Below are positions 2,230 through 11,770 of a stretch of DNA of 64,000 nt, piece after piece (positions within the stretch are counted from its first letter, which is position 1; each line of letters opens with the position of its first letter). The stretch is taken from the NCBI GenBank assembly GCA_963663865.1, contig OY760686.1, positions 1,184,001-1,248,000 on the forward strand, read 5' to 3'. The translations under genes and the position numbers were made by a program. Source of the stretch: Spirochaetota bacterium (lineage in GTDB: Bacteria > Spirochaetota > UBA4802 > UBA5550). A model generated the notes under the pieces. It had not been told where the DNA came from. It saw only the letters and a program-made list of their open reading frames with translations, and did no database searches.

Positions 2230-3192
2230 TTTCCGATTATAACAGATAACGAAGGTGATATAGCGCGCTACAAGTACGAGCCGTACGGGAAAGTACTGGT
2301 TCAGTCAACAGGCACCGGAATTTCAGACTACAAGTACACATCACAAAAGTCGGACGCTACAGGCCTCTACTACTACAACGCGAGGTACTATGACCCGGAA
2401 ATCGGCAGGTTCATAACGGCTGATACCGAGATACCTGATGTTAAGAACACTCAAGCTTTCAATAGGTACATGTACGTTGTCGGAAATCCGGTGAATTATG
2501 CTGATCCGAGTGGACACTGGGGATTCGGCTGGCTGAAAAATATAGCCAGTAGTGCGTGGAATGGGATTAAAACAGCAGGGAAAGTGATGTATGATTATGT
2601 AATAAAGCCTGTGTATGATGAAGTCTTAACACCTGTGGGGCATTTCTTCCGGGCTGGCTGGAATGGTGCAATGGACACGGTTTTTTCTGGGGACTGGTGG
2701 AAGGATATATGGAATAATAACAAGTGGTTGAGGACTACAGTATGCATTACTGTTATAATAGTTTTAATTATTATTGGAATTGCTTTGATACCTGGAGGTT
2801 CACCAGTGTGGTATTATCCTTTGGTATGTACATTGATTGGAACGATAGTTGGTGGTACCAAGGGTAATGTCGTAATGCATCCTTTTTCAAAAGATACCTG
2901 GTCAAATTGGAGCTGGGAAGGAGCGGCACTGGGTGCCATTATTGGGTTTGTTATTGGTTATGCTATCGCTTATTCTTCTGAATTAGTTGCAAAAGAAGCT
3001 GCAAAAAAATTATCTGAAAAGGTTGCTGCGGAGGAAGTATTTGCTAGTGGTTCCAAGATATGGGGAGAGGGTGCTATTAGCGGTAAGGGTGTTGTGGCGG
3101 GAAATACGCTTGGAAATTATGTCACTGAAGGATTTATTTTAGAATTATCTCTATCTTCTATTGCTATTGGTATAGGGATGCTTTTTAATTAG
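2230..3192 (+). pseudogene. Orphan Rhs core fragment plus C-terminal tip
   Basis: Open frame after TAA 2229 reads ITDNEG..YKYEPYG..TGLYYYNARYYDPEIGRFITAD..NRYMYVVGNPVNYADPSG, the Rhs-associated core. There is no ATG/GTG/TTG before the core. Confidence 0.85.
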
Positions 3193-3301: not shown

Positions 3302-4306
3302 ATGAAAATAAAAAATGTAGCTTTCATATTAATGGTTGAAATTTGTTTTTCGTGCAATGGAGGTAAGCAATTAGAATTATATACGCAAAATAATATTAAA
3401 AACAGTAGAATTGGTTTTAGAAATTCATGCAACAATCTTTCTGACGAAGAAATAAAGCTGAGTGATTCAGTATTAAACCATATTTATTATGAAATACAAA
3501 GTGATAATGAAATACTTATTAGCGGATTTATTCCATTGAATACTGAGGTTGTCATTCCGGTGACGTCGGGGAAAAAGAAAATTGAATATTTAATCACTTC
3601 GCATATGGGCCGTTTAGAAAAAGAATATTTAATTTCAACAGTACCAAGAACCGGGTATCATATTTCAGAAAAGTATAGATACAAGAAAATTGATCTTGAG
3701 CTAAATGATGGTGAATCTATAGTTTTTAATGCAGTTATAAAAAAACCGGTAGAATACCCTTCGCTTGCTGCACTTAATTCCTGCATAGAAAAGTTTTTTC
3801 ATATACGTTCCAGGCCGGAATTGTTTTATGAAGCAAGTTTTGTTGAAGCTAACCAATTGCATAATTCAATAACGGATATAAAAGAAGCAACTATTAGGTT
3901 TAAATTATCAGATAGTGTTGTATTTAAAAATTATGCTAAGAATTCAAGTTGTAATCATGAATATACAATTGCAACTTTAGCAATAATGCTATCCCCGAGA
4001 CACCTGCATTTATTTGAAGTGCCATTAAATTCGGAAATAAATTTTCATGCTGACCCAGGTAAGTATAAAATTGGTTATATGGTGTATGGTTTGTTTTGCA
4101 GAAATAGAGAGGATGACTTAGTTGAGATGTCAATATATGAAAGAGCGAATAAAGCAAAGTTTATTGAGGTAGATGCTGTAAAAGGCAAAACAATAAATTT
4201 AACTCTTGTGAGGGTTGGTAATATGAAAAAGACTGGGTTGTTTAATAACAAACTATTTCAGGAAATAGAATTTAAGGTTGATTCGGACAAACAATACAAA
4301 GAATAA
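3302..4306 (+). CDS. Lipoprotein, putative immunity protein
   Basis: 334 aa, MKIKN..CFSC lipobox, directly downstream of an Rhs tip. Confidence 0.6.
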   Translation: MKIKNVAFILMVEICFSCNGGKQLELYTQNNIKNSRIGFRNSCNNLSDEEIKLSDSVLNHIYYEIQSDNEILISGFIPLNTEVVIPVTSGKKKIEYLITSHMGRLEKEYLISTVPRTGYHISEKYRYKKIDLELNDGESIVFNAVIKKPVEYPSLAALNSCIEKFFHIRSRPELFYEASFVEANQLHNSITDIKEATIRFKLSDSVVFKNYAKNSSCNHEYTIATLAIMLSPRHLHLFEVPLNSEINFHADPGKYKIGYMVYGLFCRNREDDLVEMSIYERANKAKFIEVDAVKGKTINLTLVRVGNMKKTGLFNNKLFQEIEFKVDSDKQYKE

Positions 4307-4342
4307 TTTTTCGTCGACTACATGAAGAATGTCTTAAGATAA

Positions 4343-4790
4343 ATTGCTATTCATGGCACAAAAGGCGACCTTGCCGCGCAGATTGAGGGAGTTAACACAG
4401 CAGCCGGCGCGAGCGTCTACCCTGTTGTGAAGAACATGTACAACTGGAAGAGCCCGGCGGGACTGATGCTAACGATAAACGCGTACGCGAGCGCCTGGCT
4501 GAACAATCCGGCGAACTACAGAAGGCTGGGTTACGCGCTCTTCGGTCTGCTTTTGGCGGCGTGTTCATTTGTGCTGTTCTACAGCGTGAGAAGGTATAAA
4601 GCAGCAAGGAGCAATAACGCGTGTTCCATGCTGCCATGGCCCTGGCTGCGACATAGCATACCTGGAATACTGCTTTTCTTCGTGTTCACATCATTCGGGC
4701 TCACCGGCTGCTTTGATGGGTCGGTAGACAACACGACAAGAAGCAATGTGAAGTACATGCACCCGAACCATGTCGGTTCAGTCGCAATGG
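4343..4790 (+). pseudogene. Rhs internal fragment with two hydrophobic segments, ending at YMHPNHVGSVAM
   Basis: G.KGDLAAQ and YMHPNHVGS match the Rhs YYHxDHLGS motif. Homology to the 9301 copy ends at 4790. Confidence 0.7.
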
Positions 4791-5245
4791 AGACTGCATG
4801 GCTTTTTCACACTGGGAGTGTGAGACCTTTTTCTTCGTCACTTTCGTCCGGGTTTTTTGCCGCAGGCTTTAACTCGCTCAGCTGTGCAACTTGCTTTTCT
4901 CTTGTCTGAGACAGGGAGCCTGTGGACCATTTTCACGCTGAGTGCGTGGCACCTCGTTGCTTTGCAACGGTATCGACCGTTTACCGAAAATATATTTTGT
5001 GCGGTGCGCACGGGCATTTCTTTCGCCACTTTTTTGTTGCGCCACAAAAAAGTGGCGAAAAAAAGGCGTTCCTCAATCGCCGGAAGGGCTGGCTTTTGTA
5101 GTTAGCAAACTATTTCAGCGCCGTTATCATCATCCTGATGAAACGGCACCCGTGCGATTTACATCCGTGTAAATCGCACGAGTTGAGTTGTTGAATCACG
5201 ATGCTTGCAGTCTCATAATTCTACAATTGTGTTTGCCTACGTTTA
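4791..5245. repeat. Multi-hairpin non-coding element, copy A
   Basis: Hairpins at 4808-4822, 5021-5060, about 5120-5148 and 5151-5180; homologous to 9427-9685. Confidence 0.7.
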
Positions 5246-5364
5246 TTTCGACCTCCTGGCGGCCGTAGGCACTGTGACATCGTGTCAGGCGCGCCGCCTC
5301 ATCGCAGTTGTAATCCCCACGAAAAATCATTGAAGTTATAAGTAGAGTTTCTAATAATAACAAC

Positions 5365-6240
5365 GGGGTCACGGACTACAAGTACACCTCGCAAAAGGCC
5401 GACGCTACAGGCCTGTACTACTACAACGCGAGGTACTATGACCCTGAAATAGGCAGGTTCATAACGGCTGATACTGAGATACCTGATGTAAAGAACACTC
5501 AAGCCTTTAACAGGTACATGTACGTTGTTGGCAATCCGGTGAATTATGCTGATCCGAGTGGGCACTGGGGATTCGGCTGGCTGAAAAATATAGCCAGTAG
5601 TGCGTGGAATGGGATTAAAACAGCAGGGAAAGTGATGTATGATTATGTAATAAAGCCTGTGTATGATGGTGCAGTAGGTTTCTTAAGAGACATTAGAGAC
5701 CTTGGCTCAGGAGTAGGCGGTTTCTTTAAAGATATGGGTAGGGATATAGGCGATTTTTTTGCGGATCTATGGGATAAACAGTGGTTTCGGGTTACAGTAT
5801 ATTTTGCTATAATTGTCGCTGCTATTATTGTCGGCATTTACTTGGCTCCAATGCTTTATGCTGCTATTGGGATAACTGTCACACAAGGAACGATGTTAGG
5901 TTATATTGGAACTGGAATGGTTCTTGGGGCTTTAATCGGAGGGACGAAGGGGAAAATTGTAAAATTTGTGATTGAATTGGCAAAGGGGAAAGTGAGATCT
6001 CTTGATGATATTGGAGATTTTTTCAAAGAAAACTGGGATTGGGAAAATGCTCTTCTTGGAGCGGCAATCGGGTCTGTCTCTGGATTATTTGGCCCACTAT
6101 TTAAAAAATATGTATGGGATTTATCAGTAAATTTTGGCGATGCTCTGTTGGAAAGTGTAAAATATCGAGAAGGTGATGCGTTATTAGGTCAAGGAGGTGA
6201 AGTGTTTTTAGGGGTAGAAATGAGTATCCCATGCTTTTAA
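5365..6240 (+). pseudogene. Orphan Rhs core fragment plus a different C-terminal tip
   Basis: DYKYTSQK..YYYNARYYDP..NPVNYADPSG. Near-identical to 2320-2620 up to VIKPVYD, then divergent. Confidence 0.85.
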
Positions 6241-6398
6241 CAATATGGAGGTTGAAATGAATAAAAAGTATTGTTTGATTATGGTTTTTATGGTTTTTGT
6301 TAGTTGTAGTTCAACACATCTAAAAGGTATTACTGCTAATAGTAATGTTTATGATTGGGCAATTAGAGGAATAGAGGTAAGCGTCAAATCTCCCCCAG

Positions 6399-8003
6399 TC
6401 ATCTGATTTTAATCATTTCCTGAGAAACCGTATCAGGCAGGAGATTTCTGAGTTCTACCTTGTTTGTACATTTTGGCAATCTTTCAAAAATATACCGCAA
6501 ATAGTAGTAAGGTTCCAGCTTGTTGGCCTTTGCACTCTCTATCAGAGAATAAAAACAGGCACTGCTTCGAGCTCCCCGGGGAGTATTCGAGAACAGCCAA
6601 TTCTTACGCCCGACGACAAATGGACGTATGGCATTTTCAACCAGATTGTTGTCCGGTGTTAACAGGTGGTGATCAAGAAAATGAATGATATTTCCCCACA
6701 TAGAAAGTGTATATGACAGGGCTTTTCCGCTTAGACTTGAAGGGAGAACAATTATTTGTTGTTCTATAAGCCAGTTATGAAACTTCTCAAGTATGGGCTT
6801 CATTTGTTCTCTGCGTTTGACAATAAAATCATCGTTCTCAAGATTTCTACTTCGCAGAGTACTTTCTACACTGTAAATGTCGCGGATATATTTCAGAGCC
6901 GTGTGTGCACACTTTGATTTCCGGTTAGCCTTGTATGCCTTTTCAAAGCCCCTTCTTGCATGAACAAGACAACCGACATGGGTAATTGTTCCTTCATATG
7001 AGGAGTCATTAAAGTCATATCCCTTATATCCGTCAGTTTGAACAAACCCGGAATAATTCTGTAGTATTCTTTTCGGAACTTCTGATGAGCGAGTCGGATG
7101 ATACTGATACAGTAAAAGAGGATGCTCTTTATCTCCATATCCATACGCCACCCACATGTATGATTTTGATGAAGGTGATTTATTTTCCTCTCTCAAAACC
7201 TGCACTGTTGTTTCGTCCATACGAATAACCGGTCCTGAAAGAATAACCTCTTCCAGGACTTCCATGAGCCCCCTGCATTTTTCTGCCACAAGAAGTGACC
7301 AGTTGCATTGTGTTGCTCGGGAGATATCAACTCCGAATCTGGAGAAGATTTTAGCTTGTCTGTAAAAAGGTAGAGCATCGCAGAATTTTGATATAACAGA
7401 ATATGCGATAAGCCCCGGTGATGCAATACTCCCAGGGACAAGTCGTTCTGGTGCTTTTGCTGTCTTTATTTCCGTAATTTCTTGTTCCAGAAAATCATCG
7501 CAGGCGCATGGGCCATATTTTTTTCTGATGTGTTTATTAACAATTATCTGCTGCGGAATAATATCAAGTTCTTCTGTTATATCTTCTCCAATGCAAGGAC
7601 GCTCTTTCCCACAGCAAGGACATAATTTTTCTTCATTATCCAGATCGTGAATGATCTCTTTACGAGGAATTTCATCTGAAAGTTTCTTTCTGCCAGGTTT
7701 TTTCCGTGTATGAGAAGGGATCGTTATATCGTCATTTTCTGGTTCTTTCGGTGAATTTTCATCAGCACCATCTTCAGCTTCGTTAAACAAAAGCAGTTGA
7801 TCTATTTCTTCTTTTGTCAGTTTTTCACTTCTCTTTCCGAAAACCATTCGCCTGAAATCTGAAAGCTGAAGCCGTAAAGAATCAATTTCTGTTTCAAGAT
7901 TATTACGTTTCTCTTCGAGCTGTAAACATTTAGAATCTAATGCCAGCAACATCTCTTTTAGTAATGCTGGATTGTCTGGAAGGTTGTTCGGATCAATACT
8001 CAT
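6399..8003 (-). CDS. tnpC: IS66 transposase TnpC
   Basis: FGKRSEK, CPCCG zinc finger, MDETTVQV, QTDGY, CLVHARR, DNNLVENAIRP, GRKNWLF. Confidence 0.97.
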   Translation of the reverse strand: MSIDPNNLPDNPALLKEMLLALDSKCLQLEEKRNNLETEIDSLRLQLSDFRRMVFGKRSEKLTKEEIDQLLLFNEAEDGADENSPKEPENDDITIPSHTRKKPGRKKLSDEIPRKEIIHDLDNEEKLCPCCGKERPCIGEDITEELDIIPQQIIVNKHIRKKYGPCACDDFLEQEITEIKTAKAPERLVPGSIASPGLIAYSVISKFCDALPFYRQAKIFSRFGVDISRATQCNWSLLVAEKCRGLMEVLEEVILSGPVIRMDETTVQVLREENKSPSSKSYMWVAYGYGDKEHPLLLYQYHPTRSSEVPKRILQNYSGFVQTDGYKGYDFNDSSYEGTITHVGCLVHARRGFEKAYKANRKSKCAHTALKYIRDIYSVESTLRSRNLENDDFIVKRREQMKPILEKFHNWLIEQQIIVLPSSLSGKALSYTLSMWGNIIHFLDHHLLTPDNNLVENAIRPFVVGRKNWLFSNTPRGARSSACFYSLIESAKANKLEPYYYLRYIFERLPKCTNKVELRNLLPDTVSQEMIKIR

Positions 8004-8044
8004 GCAGACATTGTATGTGGACGTTAATATATTAATAGTACTTT

Positions 8045-8392
8045 TTATGAAGCATGGAAAAAATTAAGAGGTCTGTGTGCATTGAAAAAGTCAATGCCTG
8101 ACAACAGCATTGTTAGCTGCTGCTGACTTATCTCCTGTACTTCCTCCTCTGTTTGCGGCCACGGAAATCTATGTTTCTCCATCCGTTTTTGCCAGAGACA
8201 AAATCCGTTGCTATCCCAATACAACACTTTTAACAAACGATGATTCCTGCTGCAGAACATGTACAGGTGACCATTGAATGGATCCAGATGCATCTCTTCC
8301 TCTGCGATAATTACAAGTCCGTTTATCTGCTTGCGCATGTCTGTAATGCCGGGCTTGATAAATATACGAACACTGTTCCAGTCTATCTGCAT
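8045..8392 (-). CDS. tnpB: IS66 accessory protein TnpB
   Basis: TDMRKQINGL, LKVLYWDSNGFCLWQKRME, FPWP. Confidence 0.95.
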   Translation of the reverse strand: MQIDWNSVRIFIKPGITDMRKQINGLVIIAEEEMHLDPFNGHLYMFCSRNHRLLKVLYWDSNGFCLWQKRMEKHRFPWPQTEEEVQEISQQQLTMLLSGIDFFNAHRPLNFFHAS

Positions 8393-8706
8393 GGGATAAC
8401 TCCGAAAGATTTGACAATACATATAAGCATCTCCGGTGATATGTCCGCTGGAAAAGAGATGTGAATTATATTGCTAAAATGGATTTCAATCCTGTTTGCT
8501 GATGCTGTTTTTTGCAGTACAGGTTTGAATTTTATTTCTGTCATGGCTGATGATTTTTGTTCACTTTCGAGTCGGCGCTTCCATTGATTAAATGACCAGT
8601 ATGATATACCTGAGTCGAGGCAGAATTTCCGTTGTGACGCTCCAGAGGCATAGAACTCTTTTAGTTGTTCCTGCCAGTATTGCTTGCGTTTTTCTCTTGA
8701 TTCCAT
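8383..8706 (-). CDS. tnpA: IS66 accessory protein TnpA (HTH)
   Basis: W..SGASQRKFC..GIS..SF..WKRRL; first gene of the IS. Confidence 0.9.
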   Translation of the reverse strand: MESREKRKQYWQEQLKEFYASGASQRKFCLDSGISYWSFNQWKRRLESEQKSSAMTEIKFKPVLQKTASANRIEIHFSNIIHISFPADISPEMLICIVKSFGVIPCR

Positions 8707-9300
8707 GTTTCCCCCATATCAAATGATGGAAATCTATCACAATTCAGAATTTATGAGAAGATGCTGTCAATTTGACGCTTACGAATAGAGAATGCTGACA
8801 GTTATAGATTTGTTATTCATGGTGCTTTATATCCTATGAATGACCTTGGCACTATTGGTCAATTTGGGGAAAAAGCAATTGAAGGAGTGTTTTTTATTTC
8901 AAGCAAACAAATTCTATTTTCAGTTTATAATCCTAACTTAATGACATATTATACAGTAGATCAAATTAAATTTGATGATATTACATCATTATCATCGAAA
9001 AAACATGGGATTACACGGCTTATTACTATTAAAACAAAAAAAAATTATGTTTATAGCATTATGGTTGTATTATGTTTGAACAATGAAGGAGTAGAAGTTG
9101 ATAAAGATAAAGTCGTCGAATTTATACTTGGGCAAAAAAATCCGAGATTATAAAATAAATATATCACTATTATATTATATCAACTCTATTCATGCTAATT
9201 ATTAAAAAAAGTAAAAGTGTTTATGTTTTTATTGAATATAATTGAAGAAATGTTATCTGATATGATATTCTATGCATGTTGTTTAATAACAATATACTAT

Positions 9301-9426
9301 GAATACTGCTCTTCTTCGTGTTCACATCATTCGGACTCACCGGCTGCTTCGACGGGTCGGTAGATAATACAACCTTGAACAATGTTAAGTACATGCACCC
9401 GAACCATGTCGGTTCAGTTGCAATGG
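9301..9426 (+). pseudogene. Second copy of the Rhs internal fragment ending HVGSVAM
   Basis: Aligns to 4665-4790 with mostly synonymous changes. Confidence 0.75.
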
Positions 9427-9685
9427 TGAGTGTAGTCTTTTTTCACGCTGAGAGTGTGGCACTTCTTTTGCCGCTTTTTGACCGGCCAAAAAGCGGCGGG
9501 AAAAAGCTGTTCCTCAGGCGCCGGAAAGGCTTGGCTTTTGCAGTTACTCGACCATTGCAGCGCCGTTATCATCATCCTGATGAAACGGCGCCCGGGCGAT
9601 TTGCATCCATGCAAATCGCACTGGATGAATTGTTGAAGCAGGGTGCCTGCAGTTTCTTAATTCCGCCATTATGTTCCTGCACCCT
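9427..9685. repeat. Multi-hairpin non-coding element, copy B
   Basis: Same hairpin series as 4791-5245, with compensatory substitutions. Confidence 0.7.
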
Positions 9686-9818
9686 GTAGAGCCGCCCAAT
9701 TTGGGCGGCTCTACCTCACCGTGACACGCAGCGCCCCGCGGATGACAAGATGAGGAGGGAAGCCGAAGGCAGGAACATTGGCGGCAGATGCAGGGTCACC
9801 CAAATTGGGCGACCCTAC
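9686..9818. repeat. Pair of GTAG-type REP palindromes
   Basis: GTAGAGCCGCCCAA-T-TTGGGCGGCTCTAC (9686-9714, perfect) and an inverted variant at 9790-9818. Confidence 0.75.
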
Positions 9819-11770
9819 ATCATCGTCTTCTCAAAGAGCTCTTCGTCTTCGGGGCGACCTATGACGGCGATGTAATCGTTTTCAAGTATTACGTAATCAG
9901 GCTCAGGGTTGGGAAGCAGCTTTCCGTCTCTGAGAATGCCTACTACCGATATCCCGGTCTTCCTGCGTATCTCCGATTCCCTGATGGACTTCCCGGCCAG
10001 GGGGCTGAGCGCTTTCACTTCTTTCCAGTGCATCTCGAGAAAGAAGGGCGTCTTCTTGATCACGGAAAGCACAGAGCTGTCAAGTTTCTCAGTCAGTATG
10101 TTCGTGTAAGTCTGCTGTCTTATCGCGTCAGTGAGGCTGTATATCTCAGTCAATGGAAGGTCAAAGGCAGTCAGCGTCTTCCGCACAATCTCAAGGCTTG
10201 CTTCAAACTCGGGCTGTACTACTTCGAAGATGTTCATTCTGAAGAGCTCGTTTACGCTTGAAAGCGCGTCCGTTCTGGCGATTATCTTGATGCCGGGATT
10301 ATGCCTTGACGCGATGCCGATAATGTCCCGTGCCGTTGATAGAAACGGTATTGTAACAATCAGCAGTCTGGCCCTGTTTATCTGCGCCGCGTGCATGACC
10401 GTCTCCTGGCCGCTGTCTCCGTAGATGACTGGATATCCTGCGGACTTGGACATCTCGAATCTGCGGAAGTCCTGTTCAATAATGATAAAGGGATAGCCCA
10501 GCTCTCTGAAGATAGAAGCGATCTGGCGTCCGACCCTTCCGCCGCCGGCAACAACAATGTGTCCGGTCAGTCCCGCTGAGGAAACATTAATTGTCTGAAA
10601 CTCTTCATGTTTGAAGTACTTCTTCTTGAGTGAGTAGAGCGGCGATGTCAGCATCGACAAAAACGGAGAGATAATCATGGTGATAATCGAAACGGAAAGG
10701 ACCAGCGAATAGAAGTCCGCCCCGATAATCTCGTGCTTTAATCCGGTCCGTGCCAGCACGAATGAGAATTCTCCGACCTGAGCGAGCCCAAAGCCGAGCG
10801 CCAGGGGAATAATATTGAAGTACTTAAAAACCACGCTGAGCGAAGAAAAGATGACAACCTTGCTTATTACGATTACGGCGACAAGCGCGAAGACGAGGCC
10901 GGTATTTTCGGCGATGAATGCCGGATTTACGAGCATACCTATTGAAGTAAAAAACACCAGTCCGAAAATATCTCTCAGGGGGATGATGTCGTTAAGGGCC
11001 TGGTGGCTGTAATCGGACTCGCTGATTACCATTCCGGCGATAAATGCCCCGAAAGCCAGTGAAAGCCCGAACATGTGAGTCAGGTACCCTACGCCGAGAC
11101 CTATGGCCGTAATCGTGACGAGAAAAAGCTCACGGGAGTAGAGCTTTACGACAAGCTTCAGGAGCCAGGGTATTATCCTCATTCCCACAAAGATGATTGC
11201 GACAAGAATGAGCAGTGCTTTCAGAAGGATGAGCAGAAGCGGGACGATATTGCTTTCAAGCGACTGAATATTGGGGATGATGAGCATAAGCGGAATTGCG
11301 GCGAGGTCCTGTACAATCAGTACCCCGATCATTACCCTGCTTGACAGCGTTCCGATGAGCCCCCGGCTCATAAGGGTTTTCAGAACTACCATCGTGCTTG
11401 AGAGTGATATTACCATTCCAAGTACGATGGATTCGGAGAAGGGCAGCCCCAGGAACCTGCCGATTCCGTAACCCGCTCCAATGAGCAAAATCACCTGAAT
11501 CGGCGTGCCGATGAGGGCTATGCCTTTGACGGACTTCAGCTCCTTGAATGAGAAGTCGAGCCCGATTGAGAAGAGAAGAAGCGCGACGCCTATCTCCGCT
11601 AAAAGCTCTATCTGGGGAATCTGTGAAATGGTTACTCCGCCCGTGTGCGGGCCCATTATCACCCCGGCGAGGATGTAGCCGACAATCGGCGGAATCTTGA
11701 GCCTGTTTGCCGCAAGGCCCGCCGCCAGTCCTACCAGTATAATAATGATGAGATCTTCTGCTATTCCCAT
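9815..11770 (-). CDS. CPA2 cation:proton antiporter with TrkA-N/TrkA-C domains (KefC/YbaL-like)
   Basis: LAEIGVALLLFSIGL, SLSSTMVV, QVGEFSFVL, GGGRVG, YGD. Confidence 0.92.
   Translation of the reverse strand: MGIAEDLIIIILVGLAAGLAANRLKIPPIVGYILAGVIMGPHTGGVTISQIPQIELLAEIGVALLLFSIGLDFSFKELKSVKGIALIGTPIQVILLIGAGYGIGRFLGLPFSESIVLGMVISLSSTMVVLKTLMSRGLIGTLSSRVMIGVLIVQDLAAIPLMLIIPNIQSLESNIVPLLLILLKALLILVAIIFVGMRIIPWLLKLVVKLYSRELFLVTITAIGLGVGYLTHMFGLSLAFGAFIAGMVISESDYSHQALNDIIPLRDIFGLVFFTSIGMLVNPAFIAENTGLVFALVAVIVISKVVIFSSLSVVFKYFNIIPLALGFGLAQVGEFSFVLARTGLKHEIIGADFYSLVLSVSIITMIISPFLSMLTSPLYSLKKKYFKHEEFQTINVSSAGLTGHIVVAGGGRVGRQIASIFRELGYPFIIIEQDFRRFEMSKSAGYPVIYGDSGQETVMHAAQINRARLLIVTIPFLSTARDIIGIASRHNPGIKIIARTDALSSVNELFRMNIFEVVQPEFEASLEIVRKTLTAFDLPLTEIYSLTDAIRQQTYTNILTEKLDSSVLSVIKKTPFFLEMHWKEVKALSPLAGKSIRESEIRRKTGISVVGILRDGKLLPNPEPDYVILENDYIAVIGRPEDEELFEKTMM

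Follow-up and report, generated by a model that had tools for sequence, protein, structure and literature searches.

The stretch analysed here (the window, 64,000 nucleotides) covers positions 1,184,001-1,248,000 of a Spirochaetota genome consisting of a single contig of 3.16 Mb (45.9% G+C, 98%-complete), and it begins inside an Rhs toxin-immunity array. Two Rhs core fragments in this array, F(A) and F(B), stop at one and the same base, ...GTCGGTTCAGTNGCAATGG (...GCAATGG, window 4790 and 9426), and each runs into a tract that is no longer Rhs, here termed repeat copies A and B. The coincidence had been noticed in an earlier reading made from the sequence alone (the sequence-only reading), and alignment shows that the two tracts are homologous to each other, as that reading had said, although the ends it gave them were too short: BLAST matches to other copies carry A to 5308 and B to 9789. 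All four stems that it quoted are found in place, and the differences between A and B keep them paired. From these features it proposed a covarying multi-hairpin element acting as a cassette-shuffling site in Rhs genes, or else a structured RNA. Our analysis retains the covarying hairpin element without a known match, rejects the Rhs-specific cassette site and makes a discrete non-coding RNA unlikely. The tracts probably belong to a mosaic hairpin family resembling REP (repetitive extragenic palindromic) sequences, the bacterial interspersed mosaic elements (BIMEs) and the BOX elements, with a polar 3'-end or terminator role, spread by recombination or template switching, and with an orientation that follows replication.

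Both copies are chains of short modules (Table 1). M1 reads GGCAGG GAG CCTGCC, and M2 reads CACGCT GAG AGCGTG or CACACT GGG AGTGTG, with GTGCG GAG CGCAC as a third form; M3 is a spacer of about 75 nucleotides (nt), and M4 is GGGACGGTC TCG GACCGTCCC. Hairpin H2 occurs in three variants, H3 is GCCGTT-A-TCATCA-TCC-TGATGA-AACGGC, and H4 is GCGATTTGCA-TCCA-TGCAAATCGC. X1 consists of a variable stem around the loop TTTCGACCTCCTGTCG followed by a small CA-TCC-TG hairpin, and T1 of GTAGAGCCGCCCAAATTGGGCGGCTCTAC with a 75-nt tail. The modules are joined head to tail in units of the form M1-M2-M3 (about 125 nt) or M1-M2-H2-H3-H4 (about 270 nt), and copies vary in length and in their ends. Allowing up to two mismatches, the M2 pattern matches the genome 69 times, mostly after an M1-like GGCAGGGAGCCTGCC, the rest being stray matches outside repeat loci. 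Chimeric copies switch between modules at or near hairpins: at 2,246,2xx and 2,311,5xx, for example, H3 continues from the shared loop TCATCCTGA into a right arm that belongs to a different hairpin. Across the 39 loci defined below we counted 278 hairpins in 90 sequence families, with the loop TCC in 21 and TCCA in 19. The family comprises lineage-restricted, interspersed chains of about ten kinds of short hairpin, with T-rich linkers on one strand.

BLASTN and nhmmer searches with both tracts returned dozens of matches across the genome, about a dozen of them 84-94% identical to copy B over at least 190 bases, and a census of 14-mers present at least six times identified the hairpin family as the main repeat of the chromosome. 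An all-against-genome BLAST comparison yielded 46 intervals with a total of 21,392 bp, 39 of which are longer than 200 bp (with as much as 80 bp of query padding counted in each length). These loci are intergenic, flanked by genes such as ychF, hisD, acrB, metE, an SAH hydrolase gene, and genes for a transketolase and an ABC exporter, as well as by restriction and defence genes and insertion sequence (IS) elements. The proposed tie to an Rhs codon and to Rhs cassettes was not borne out, since copies are scattered independently of Rhs, with 24 of the 39 loci more than 10 kb from any Rhs gene. The remaining 15 lie within 10 kb of four of the five Rhs genes, and these zones account for 4.1% of the genome. 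We conclude that the family is a general one, yet clearly enriched at Rhs loci, where the clustered loci are not mutually independent. In four public DNA runs, short-read contigs end or branch at the repeats, further matches come from other copies, and no informative joint was obtained; a practical consequence is that the repeats break short-read assemblies. Among 12 sequencing runs, none listed as RNA contains the locus. Queries with the Rhs side of the junction and with hairpin H3 each gave zero matches in a metagenome contig collection.

The hairpins fold far better than expected by chance. Copy B, folded as RNA, reaches z = -7.0 on the plus strand and -6.0 on the minus strand (200 shuffles each), and copy A, folded as DNA, z = -5.8 (100 shuffles); no shuffle was as good in any of these comparisons. 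In an alignment of H3 and H4 from 21 genomic copies, 92.8% of cells are paired, compared with 26-45% when the partners are slid by 1-3 columns, and both sides of a pair have changed in 18 cells, against 6.9 +/- 1.8 in column shuffles (none of 500 reaches 18); the copies are paralogues, so this shuffle count overstates the case and is not a probability. One H4 pair is U-A in ten copies, G-C in nine and A-U in one, another is C-G in 16 and A-U in four, and H3 contains four singleton double changes. RNAalifold found compensatory changes in 14 of 44 predicted pairs among 23 copies, a number that stems partly from aligning alternative modules together. Because both pairing and double changes exceed their controls, the hairpins are being maintained as such, and the 21-copy pair counts and fold scores confirm a real covarying multi-hairpin element whose stems are kept through compensatory changes.

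The chains are strongly polar. Within the 39 loci, units of a hairpin followed by a T-tract number 110 on the element strand and three on the opposite strand; random windows comprising five times as much sequence gave 89 and 39. A terminator scan of copy A detected six sites, five of them on the plus strand, against 1.3 +/- 1.1 in shuffles. Based on crude open reading frame (ORF) calls (2630 ORFs), 27 of the 39 loci lie behind a co-directional gene, and in 17 of these cases the stop codon is no more than 110 nt away. This is the layout of an intrinsic-terminator cluster, with hairpins and T-tracts on the strand of the upstream gene and near its stop. In Gupta and Pal (2021; PMC8355165), clusters of adjacent hairpins shortly past the stop codon are described as acting as intrinsic terminators; the likeness extends to the position soon after the stop and to the transcribed strand, but the clusters in that text are locus-specific, whereas ours form a repeated family that is about 90% identical, extends up to 1 kb and also occurs at 12 loci without a co-directional gene. 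At the RNA level, the arrangement suggests that a chain may serve as a polar 3'-end, terminator or insulator for the upstream gene.

The orientation of the repeats follows replication. We placed the replication map by cumulative GC skew, which is lowest at 340 kb and highest at 1,920 kb; the low point and dnaA, at 350 kb, mark the origin. On this map, 37 of the 39 loci (40 of the 46 intervals) are co-oriented with replication, the exceptions among the loci being those at 2,372 kb and 2,637 kb, so that the displayed strand is the leading strand and the lagging-strand template at 37 loci, while only 59% of ORFs (1553/2630) are co-oriented. Since 26 of the 27 loci with a co-directional upstream gene stand behind leading-strand genes, orientation tracks replication more closely than it tracks the neighbouring gene. 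A replication-coupled step on single-stranded DNA (ssDNA), with the displayed strand as lagging-strand template, might produce such a rule, or head-on copies might be lost by selection; replication-biased orientation of mobile elements is the subject of Gomez et al. (2014; PMC3971601).

A covariance model of H3 and H4 (R1), searched in this genome and in 63 others of the same family, found 28 places here and a single weak match elsewhere (genome G047, E = 0.0017). Among the 64 genomes the core is thus confined to this one and absent from 62 of the 63 others, and with one weak match in 63 genomes a discrete conserved non-coding RNA is unlikely. BLASTN with copy B gave short module matches only, in four of 40 relatives, and we found no copy in the complete or nearly complete genomes G011, G062 and G077 of other genera. 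Where modules do recur, their loops are kept and their stems are not. In place of H3 and H4, G047 has GGGCGCGT-A-TCGTCA-TCC-TGACGG-ACGCGCCC and GCGAACA-TCC-TGTTCGC; G016 has the X1 stem GTCGAGCGC/GCGCTCGAC against GTCGACGGC/GCCGTCGAC in this genome; and G001 has the X1 stem GTCCAGCGC/GCGCTGGAC, a hairpin TGAACA-TCC-TGTTCA, and CTGGCCGCCA-TCCA-TGGCGGCCAG. Across genera, therefore, the loops CA-TCC-TG, CA-TCCA-TG and TTTCGACCTCCTGTCG are constant and the stems vary freely. Among 122 genomes of the order, the X1 loop pattern occurs seven times in this genome (G000), six times in G001 and twice each in G016 and G010; single matches in 13 genomes were discounted because a reversed-pattern control matched 25 of the 122. 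In G016, five of six module matches agree with the local sign of the GC skew and the sixth is ambiguous; as a test, this comparison with local skew over 12-20 kb is weak.

Several observations weigh against a family of polar 3'-end elements kept for their structure. A terminator role alone predicts about 59% co-orientation with replication, not 37 of 39, and 12 of the 39 loci have no co-directional upstream gene to terminate. Most hairpins are short and the T-tracts interrupted, so that a single one would be a poor terminator. Template switching, too, can generate compensatory changes in palindromes, with no selection involved. Stem mismatches are G.T rather than A.C by 64 to 18 (97 to 89 in random hairpins), which weakly supports folding of the displayed strand, but as strand evidence this excess shrinks to 25 to 14 when each hairpin family is counted once. 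Finally, loops kept around unrelated stems suggest recognition by a protein or nucleic acid, a feature for which a plain terminator has no use. Should the loops act as a recognition signal, the family would offer a clean handle on its reader, be it a termination or RNA-stability factor or a DNA enzyme.

In another reading, the copies serve as regulatory RNAs or decoys: in transcripts of the element strand, the loops ACCUCCU and CAUCCUG would mimic the anti-Shine-Dalgarno end of 16S rRNA and bind to ribosome-binding sites, and transcripts of the opposite strand, with GGA in CAGGAUG and AUGGAU, would form a CsrB-like sponge for CsrA. The frequency of TCC and TCCA loops and the ACCTCCT within the X1 loop, which we take to match the 16S tail and, for the GGA strand, presumably the CsrA consensus, are in line with this idea, as is the presence of one csrA gene in the genome. 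Strong co-orientation with replication is, moreover, typical of highly transcribed genes. The Rfam evidence consists of a PrrB/RsmZ match on the minus strand of 18.6 bits (E = 0.45), far below the gathering score of 44. In Rfam 15, positions 4300-10000 of the window gave only sub-threshold chance matches at E up to 1, a point in favour of the sequence-only reading, and a scan of 118 kb of seven other repeat-bearing regions matched nothing in the element, its only match being a group II intron. Since T-tracts lie on the element strand only, an RNA from the GGA strand would have no terminators, which weakens the sponge idea. No promoter common to the copies was seen (copy A has three predicted sites against 1.2 +/- 1.5 expected, copy B one, on the minus strand and outside the element). 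The copies are mosaic and truncated, which does not look like a gene family, and their core is missing from nearly all family genomes. Together, these points make a decoy RNA highly improbable, and we retain the polar 3'-end element as the preferred reading.

We then asked how the shared break-point arose. Two intact Rhs paralogues continue across it as GCAATGG/TAACCGACCACGAAGG, encoding HVGSVAM/VTDHEG, and in the window the stretch from 4790 to 5374 lacks about 90 nt of Rhs core (VTDHEG...TGIS). In copy A, Rhs gives way to AGACTGCATGGC-TTTTTCACACTGGG, where the closest paralogue of A (genome 768558-769002) has a complete M1 and reads GGCAGGG-AGCCTGCCTGGC-TTTCTCACACTGGG; Rhs GCAATGG thus occupies the place of the M1 left arm GGCAGGG, with the likeness GCA-GG. 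Because M1 is complete in that paralogue where A has Rhs, the fusion lies in the M1 loop. A third copy of the GCAATGG junction is located outside the window, at genome 778777, and its first 28 post-junction bases are identical to those of copy B, for which reason we count these two as one event; they stand at the right-hand ends of two paralogous Rhs arrays, and in each case a convergent flanking gene comes next. In copy A (AGACTGCA) as in copy B (TGAGTGTA), the M1 remnant has an A at two positions that are C in the consensus (AGCCTGCC) and in nearly all of the listed M1 copies. Both of the departures of copy A from the consensus are therefore common to B, with an estimated chance of about 0.03. 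Together with the layout of the window, in which fragment, junction and element are followed by a cargo (tip 3 and immunity gene 3) and then by fragment, junction and element again, the shared departures favour one ancestral fusion, copied three times. The fixed break-point of the sequence-only reading is thus probably the inherited scar of one old fusion, present three times, and not a recurrently cut site. Such an event would have joined Rhs ...GCAAT-GG illegitimately to the right arm of M1 (GGCAGG-GAG-CCTGCC) across the short likeness between GCA(A)TGG and GCAGGG, and the junction would later have been copied along with the Rhs array; duplication or Campbell-type insertion of a single junction would give the repeated order seen here.

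Some observations do not favour one common origin. A and B differ in which intact paralogue their Rhs parts resemble, a difference that could be due to gene conversion; their 12 post-junction bases agree at only five positions; and the likeness between their element parts, which do not have the same modules, is only about 79%. In addition, orphan tip 2, said in the sequence-only reading to begin near the break-point (from 2236), does so: BLAST homology starts at 2263, and because 13 of 17 bases still agree, more weakly, as far back as about 2246, its 5' edge lies within a few bases of that point. The sequence to its left is unique in the genome, no repeat stands beside this edge, and the coincidence is unexplained. 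An Rhs-specific hot spot, a core site that breaks or recombines recurrently whether or not a repeat is present, would account for four boundaries within about 3 bases (junctions A, B and the third copy, and the orphan 2 edge) and for the different paralogues, and in intact genes the site falls in the loop of a weak hairpin of 4-5 bp (CGGTT...AACCG). We nevertheless consider it very unlikely: B and the third copy count once, A and B share two derived bases after the junction, the layout fits duplication or Campbell-type insertion of one junction, and truncations in the array also occur at unrelated points, as in the tip fragment at 1243-1515. At 175.8-176.2 kb, a tip fragment from a different Rhs family continues through the equivalent point HLGSVAY/LTD, and the GCAATGG break was seen only in the Rhs family of the window.

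The locus at 2372 kb was considered as a possible carrier of a remnant of the Rhs fragment and rejected, as its start aligns to the second M1-M2 unit of copy A and not to the junction. Each junction is touched by a perfect 9-base complement to a place inside its own repeat copy: 9419-9427 pairs with 9551-9559, and 4790-4798 with 5206-5214. We treat these as probably due to chance because their partners are non-homologous and about 0.4-0.6 are expected per region by our estimate, even though both junctions have one.

On a larger scale, repeats lie at the edges of rearranged Rhs DNA. Over 6.4 kb (770,939-777,332 and 1,177,621-1,183,918), identity between the Rhs1 and Rhs2 loci is first 98.5% and further along 95%. 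The left edge of this near-identity falls inside hairpin H4 of a copy (...CCATG/CAAATCGCAC), with different copies further left; on the right, copy B and the third copy diverge just after M2, and both loci are flanked by copies on both sides. The repeats thus take part in moving Rhs DNA, by exchange between dispersed direct repeats. Of the recombination-site idea, this preserves the junctions in hairpins (Rhs fusion, left edge of the duplication, group II intron) and discards a dedicated site-specific system: what looked like a system for shuffling toxin cassettes is replaced by rearrangement of Rhs loci via a general interspersed repeat. In the preferred reading, the family itself would likewise spread and be reshuffled through recombination or template switching between copies, with no dedicated transposase.

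The same junctions raise an alternative in which the repeats are ssDNA elements, in the manner of REP sequences and their RAYT transposases, of an IS200/IS605 relic or of integron attC sites, and a structure-specific enzyme cuts and joins at the conserved loops and moves Rhs tips. Hairpins are the sites of the Rhs fusion (M1), the duplication edge (H4), the group II intron (H4) and the switches at TCATCCTGA, but breakage or slippage at palindromes also yields junctions in hairpins. A strand-specific step would fit the orientation on the lagging-strand template, to which the skew agreement in G016 adds, and the constancy of loops over stems across genera. Orphan 2 extends from the break-point at about 2246 as far as the following one at 4790, as a circle opened there would, and in two regions, 173-176 kb and 1689-1697 kb, copies and small genes follow each other in turn; the other-family Rhs tip, however, is intact at the equivalent point. 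An enzyme is also hard to find. The co-occurring tyrosine recombinase or HUH transposase envisaged in the sequence-only reading was not seen across the genome: a six-frame search for Y1/HUH transposase (PF01797) gave zero matches, while the same search matched six of 14 control genomes; a search of the genome for TnpB found none; and the three Phage_integrase matches (2.07, 2.21 and 2.28 Mb) lie far from any copy, without an integron-like array. Only one of eight IS110-family genes adjoins a copy. The sole reverse transcriptase (RVT_1 ORF, 473 aa) belongs to the one group II intron of the genome (Rfam Intron_gpII, 52 bits) at genome 1,038,036-1,040,000 (L017:7036-9000), minus strand, which interrupts H4 in a repeat copy and runs opposite to that repeat in strand; it is an insertion into a copy, not a mobiliser. 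The copies themselves have no common ends and include chimeric units. No target duplication was found at copies, whose mosaic ends cannot be fixed, and copies A and B have no terminal inverted repeat of at least 9 bases spanning their ends except 9-nt matches at chance level. Moreover, the 110 to 3 polarity of T-tracts would have no evident role. We therefore regard an ssDNA element as unlikely. A specific form of it, transposase-less ssDNA sites whose invariant loops (CA-TCC-TG, ACCTCCT) are read on the lagging-strand template by a host or unrecognised enzyme that spreads modules and moves cassettes, Rhs toxin-immunity tips included, appears quite unlikely; if true, it would explain the near-absolute orientation, the junctions in hairpins and the enrichment at four of the five Rhs loci.

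The terminator-like mosaic that we favour can be set beside known repeats. REP sequences and BIMEs of enterobacteria and pseudomonads are built on short (20-40 nt) intergenic palindromes, and the cognate RAYT is usually flanked by REPs. As in REP/BIME DNA (including REPINs), our copies consist of short, imperfect intergenic palindromes that mostly follow genes, form mosaics in many copies, are lineage-specific and serve as substrates of rearrangement. Unlike there, the expected RAYT/Y1 transposase is absent from this genome, and the foot tetranucleotide GTAG of REPs occurs only in T1 (GTAGAGCCGCCC...), not in M1, M2, H2, H3, H4 or X1. REPINs and BIMEs are inverted pairs, whereas modules here run head to tail, minus-strand matches being the palindromes themselves; T-tracts on one strand, co-orientation with replication and conservation of loops instead of stems set the family further apart. 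BOX elements of Streptococcus pneumoniae, built from boxA, boxB and boxC in variable number, are also modular, intergenic and strongly folded, without a transposase of their own or obvious terminal inverted repeats, but sequence and host phylum are unrelated, and the repertoire here, about ten modules, is larger. To our knowledge, polarity and replication orientation of the kind seen here have not been described for BOX. Integron attC sites, whose orientation is linked to replication, share structure over sequence, single-strand folding, placement after small genes and replication-linked orientation; the differences are that our genome has no integron integrase or attI-type array and that the elements have several hairpins each, are dispersed chromosome-wide and share no ends. 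Without the defining features of REP/RAYT elements, miniature inverted-repeat transposable elements and integrons, the family can be likened to them but is a member of none. For REP-like DNA, the combination of no cognate transposase, near-complete co-orientation with strict polarity, and loops shared across genera is unusual, in a phylum whose intergenic repeats have barely been studied. A limited full-text search of the literature found no description of this family or of hairpin repeats at Rhs break-points.

Table 1. Features of the Rhs array and of repeat copies A and B in window coordinates.
Feature	Position	Strand	Basis or remark
Orphan Rhs tip 2 (ITDNEG...)	2246-3192	+	genome 777035-777491 at 96% identity, from 2263
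Rhs core fragment F(A), ending HVGSVAM/GCAATGG	4364-4790	+	93% identical to intact paralogue, genome 776582-777008; BLAST homology from 4364
Repeat copy A: M1 right-arm remnant (4791-4802), then chain of hairpin modules	4791-5308	+	90.6% identity with genome 768558-769002 across 445 nt; tail aligns with genome 2372555-2372633 as far as 5308
Copy A, hairpin M2, CACACT GGG AGTGTG, then T-tract	4808-4822	+	sequence; listed as terminator-like
Copy A, second, diverged M1-M2 unit	4911-4948	+	
Copy A, hairpin H2 variant b, GCCACTTTTTTG ... CAAAAAAGTGGC	5025-5056	+	three copies of variant b and 14 of variant a in the genome
Copy A, hairpin H3, GCCGTT-A-TCATCA-TCC-TGATGA-AACGGC	5120-5147	+	alignment, pair counts
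Copy A, hairpin H4, GCGATTTACA TCCG TGTAAATCGC	5154-5177	+	alignment, pair counts
Copy A, module X1: stem GCCTACG/CGTAGGC around loop TTTATTTCGACCTCCTGGCGGC, then small hairpin TGACA TCG TGTCA	5235-5287	+	
Resumed Rhs core end and C-terminal tip (orphan 3)	5374-6240	+	95% identical to genome 777098-777391; ORF 5518-6240
IS66-family element	6399-8760	-	transposase 6399-8003 (four IS66 Pfam domains); small upstream ORFs 8045-8422 and 8383-8706
Rhs core fragment F(B), 126 nt, ending GCAATGG	9301-9426	+	89% identical to genome 776883-777009; BLAST homology from 9301
Repeat copy B	9427-9789	+	other copies align with the tail as far as 9789
Copy B, decayed M1 right arm	9427-9438	+	
Copy B, hairpin M2, CACGCT/AGTGTG	9444-9458	+	
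Copy B, hairpin H2a, GCCGCTTTTTG/CAAAAAGCGGC	9470-9497	+	
Copy B, hairpin H3	9562-9589	+	same sequence as H3 of copy A
Copy B, hairpin H4, GCGATTTGCA/TGCAAATCGC	9596-9619	+	
Copy B, small hairpin	9638-9650	+	
Copy B, T1 hairpin, then tail	9686-9714	+	
Second T1-like palindrome (inverted repeat I1)	9787-9819	.	overlaps stop codon of the convergent K+/H+ exchanger-type gene
K+/H+ exchanger-type gene	9815-11770	-	ORF and Pfam matches

The array in the window starts with the tip (to 571) and the immunity gene (568-1200) of the main Rhs gene, followed by a truncated, glycine-rich tip fragment (1243-1515) and a lipoprotein-like gene (1674-2204); a repeat copy stands at the boundaries of neither the main tip and immunity gene nor the glycine-rich fragment. 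Further along, the IS66 element seems to interrupt a small gene that lies downstream of tip 3, leaving pieces at 6245-6406 and 8836-9153.

Both large Rhs genes carry a perfect 10-bp tandem repeat (TTCAAGCCCT) directly after their apparent start codon, in 4.3 copies at one locus and 6.3 at the other (L019:8291-8333, just upstream of the window, and L015:7612-7674, at the paralogous locus). At one of the two loci the long ORF, as called, starts only past this repeat, which looks like a slipped-strand phase switch. The Rhs core before the break-point (window 4427-4790; genome 776.6-777.0 and 1183.2-1183.6 kb) encodes two hydrophobic stretches and a lipobox-like LTGC (…ILLFFVFTSFGLTGCFDGS…), a feature that one would not expect within an Rhs shell. 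At 175.8-176.2 kb, the last repeat of the Rhs core is preceded immediately, in a small ORF, by a lipoprotein-type signal (LFLTAC), and short lipoprotein-type Rhs tip proteins may therefore exist, to judge from these reading frames. The 14-mer census also picked out four stretches outside this family that are rich in 14-mers present at least six times, at genome 1396454-1396655, 1423253-1423834, 1464934-1466465 and 1613457-1613544.

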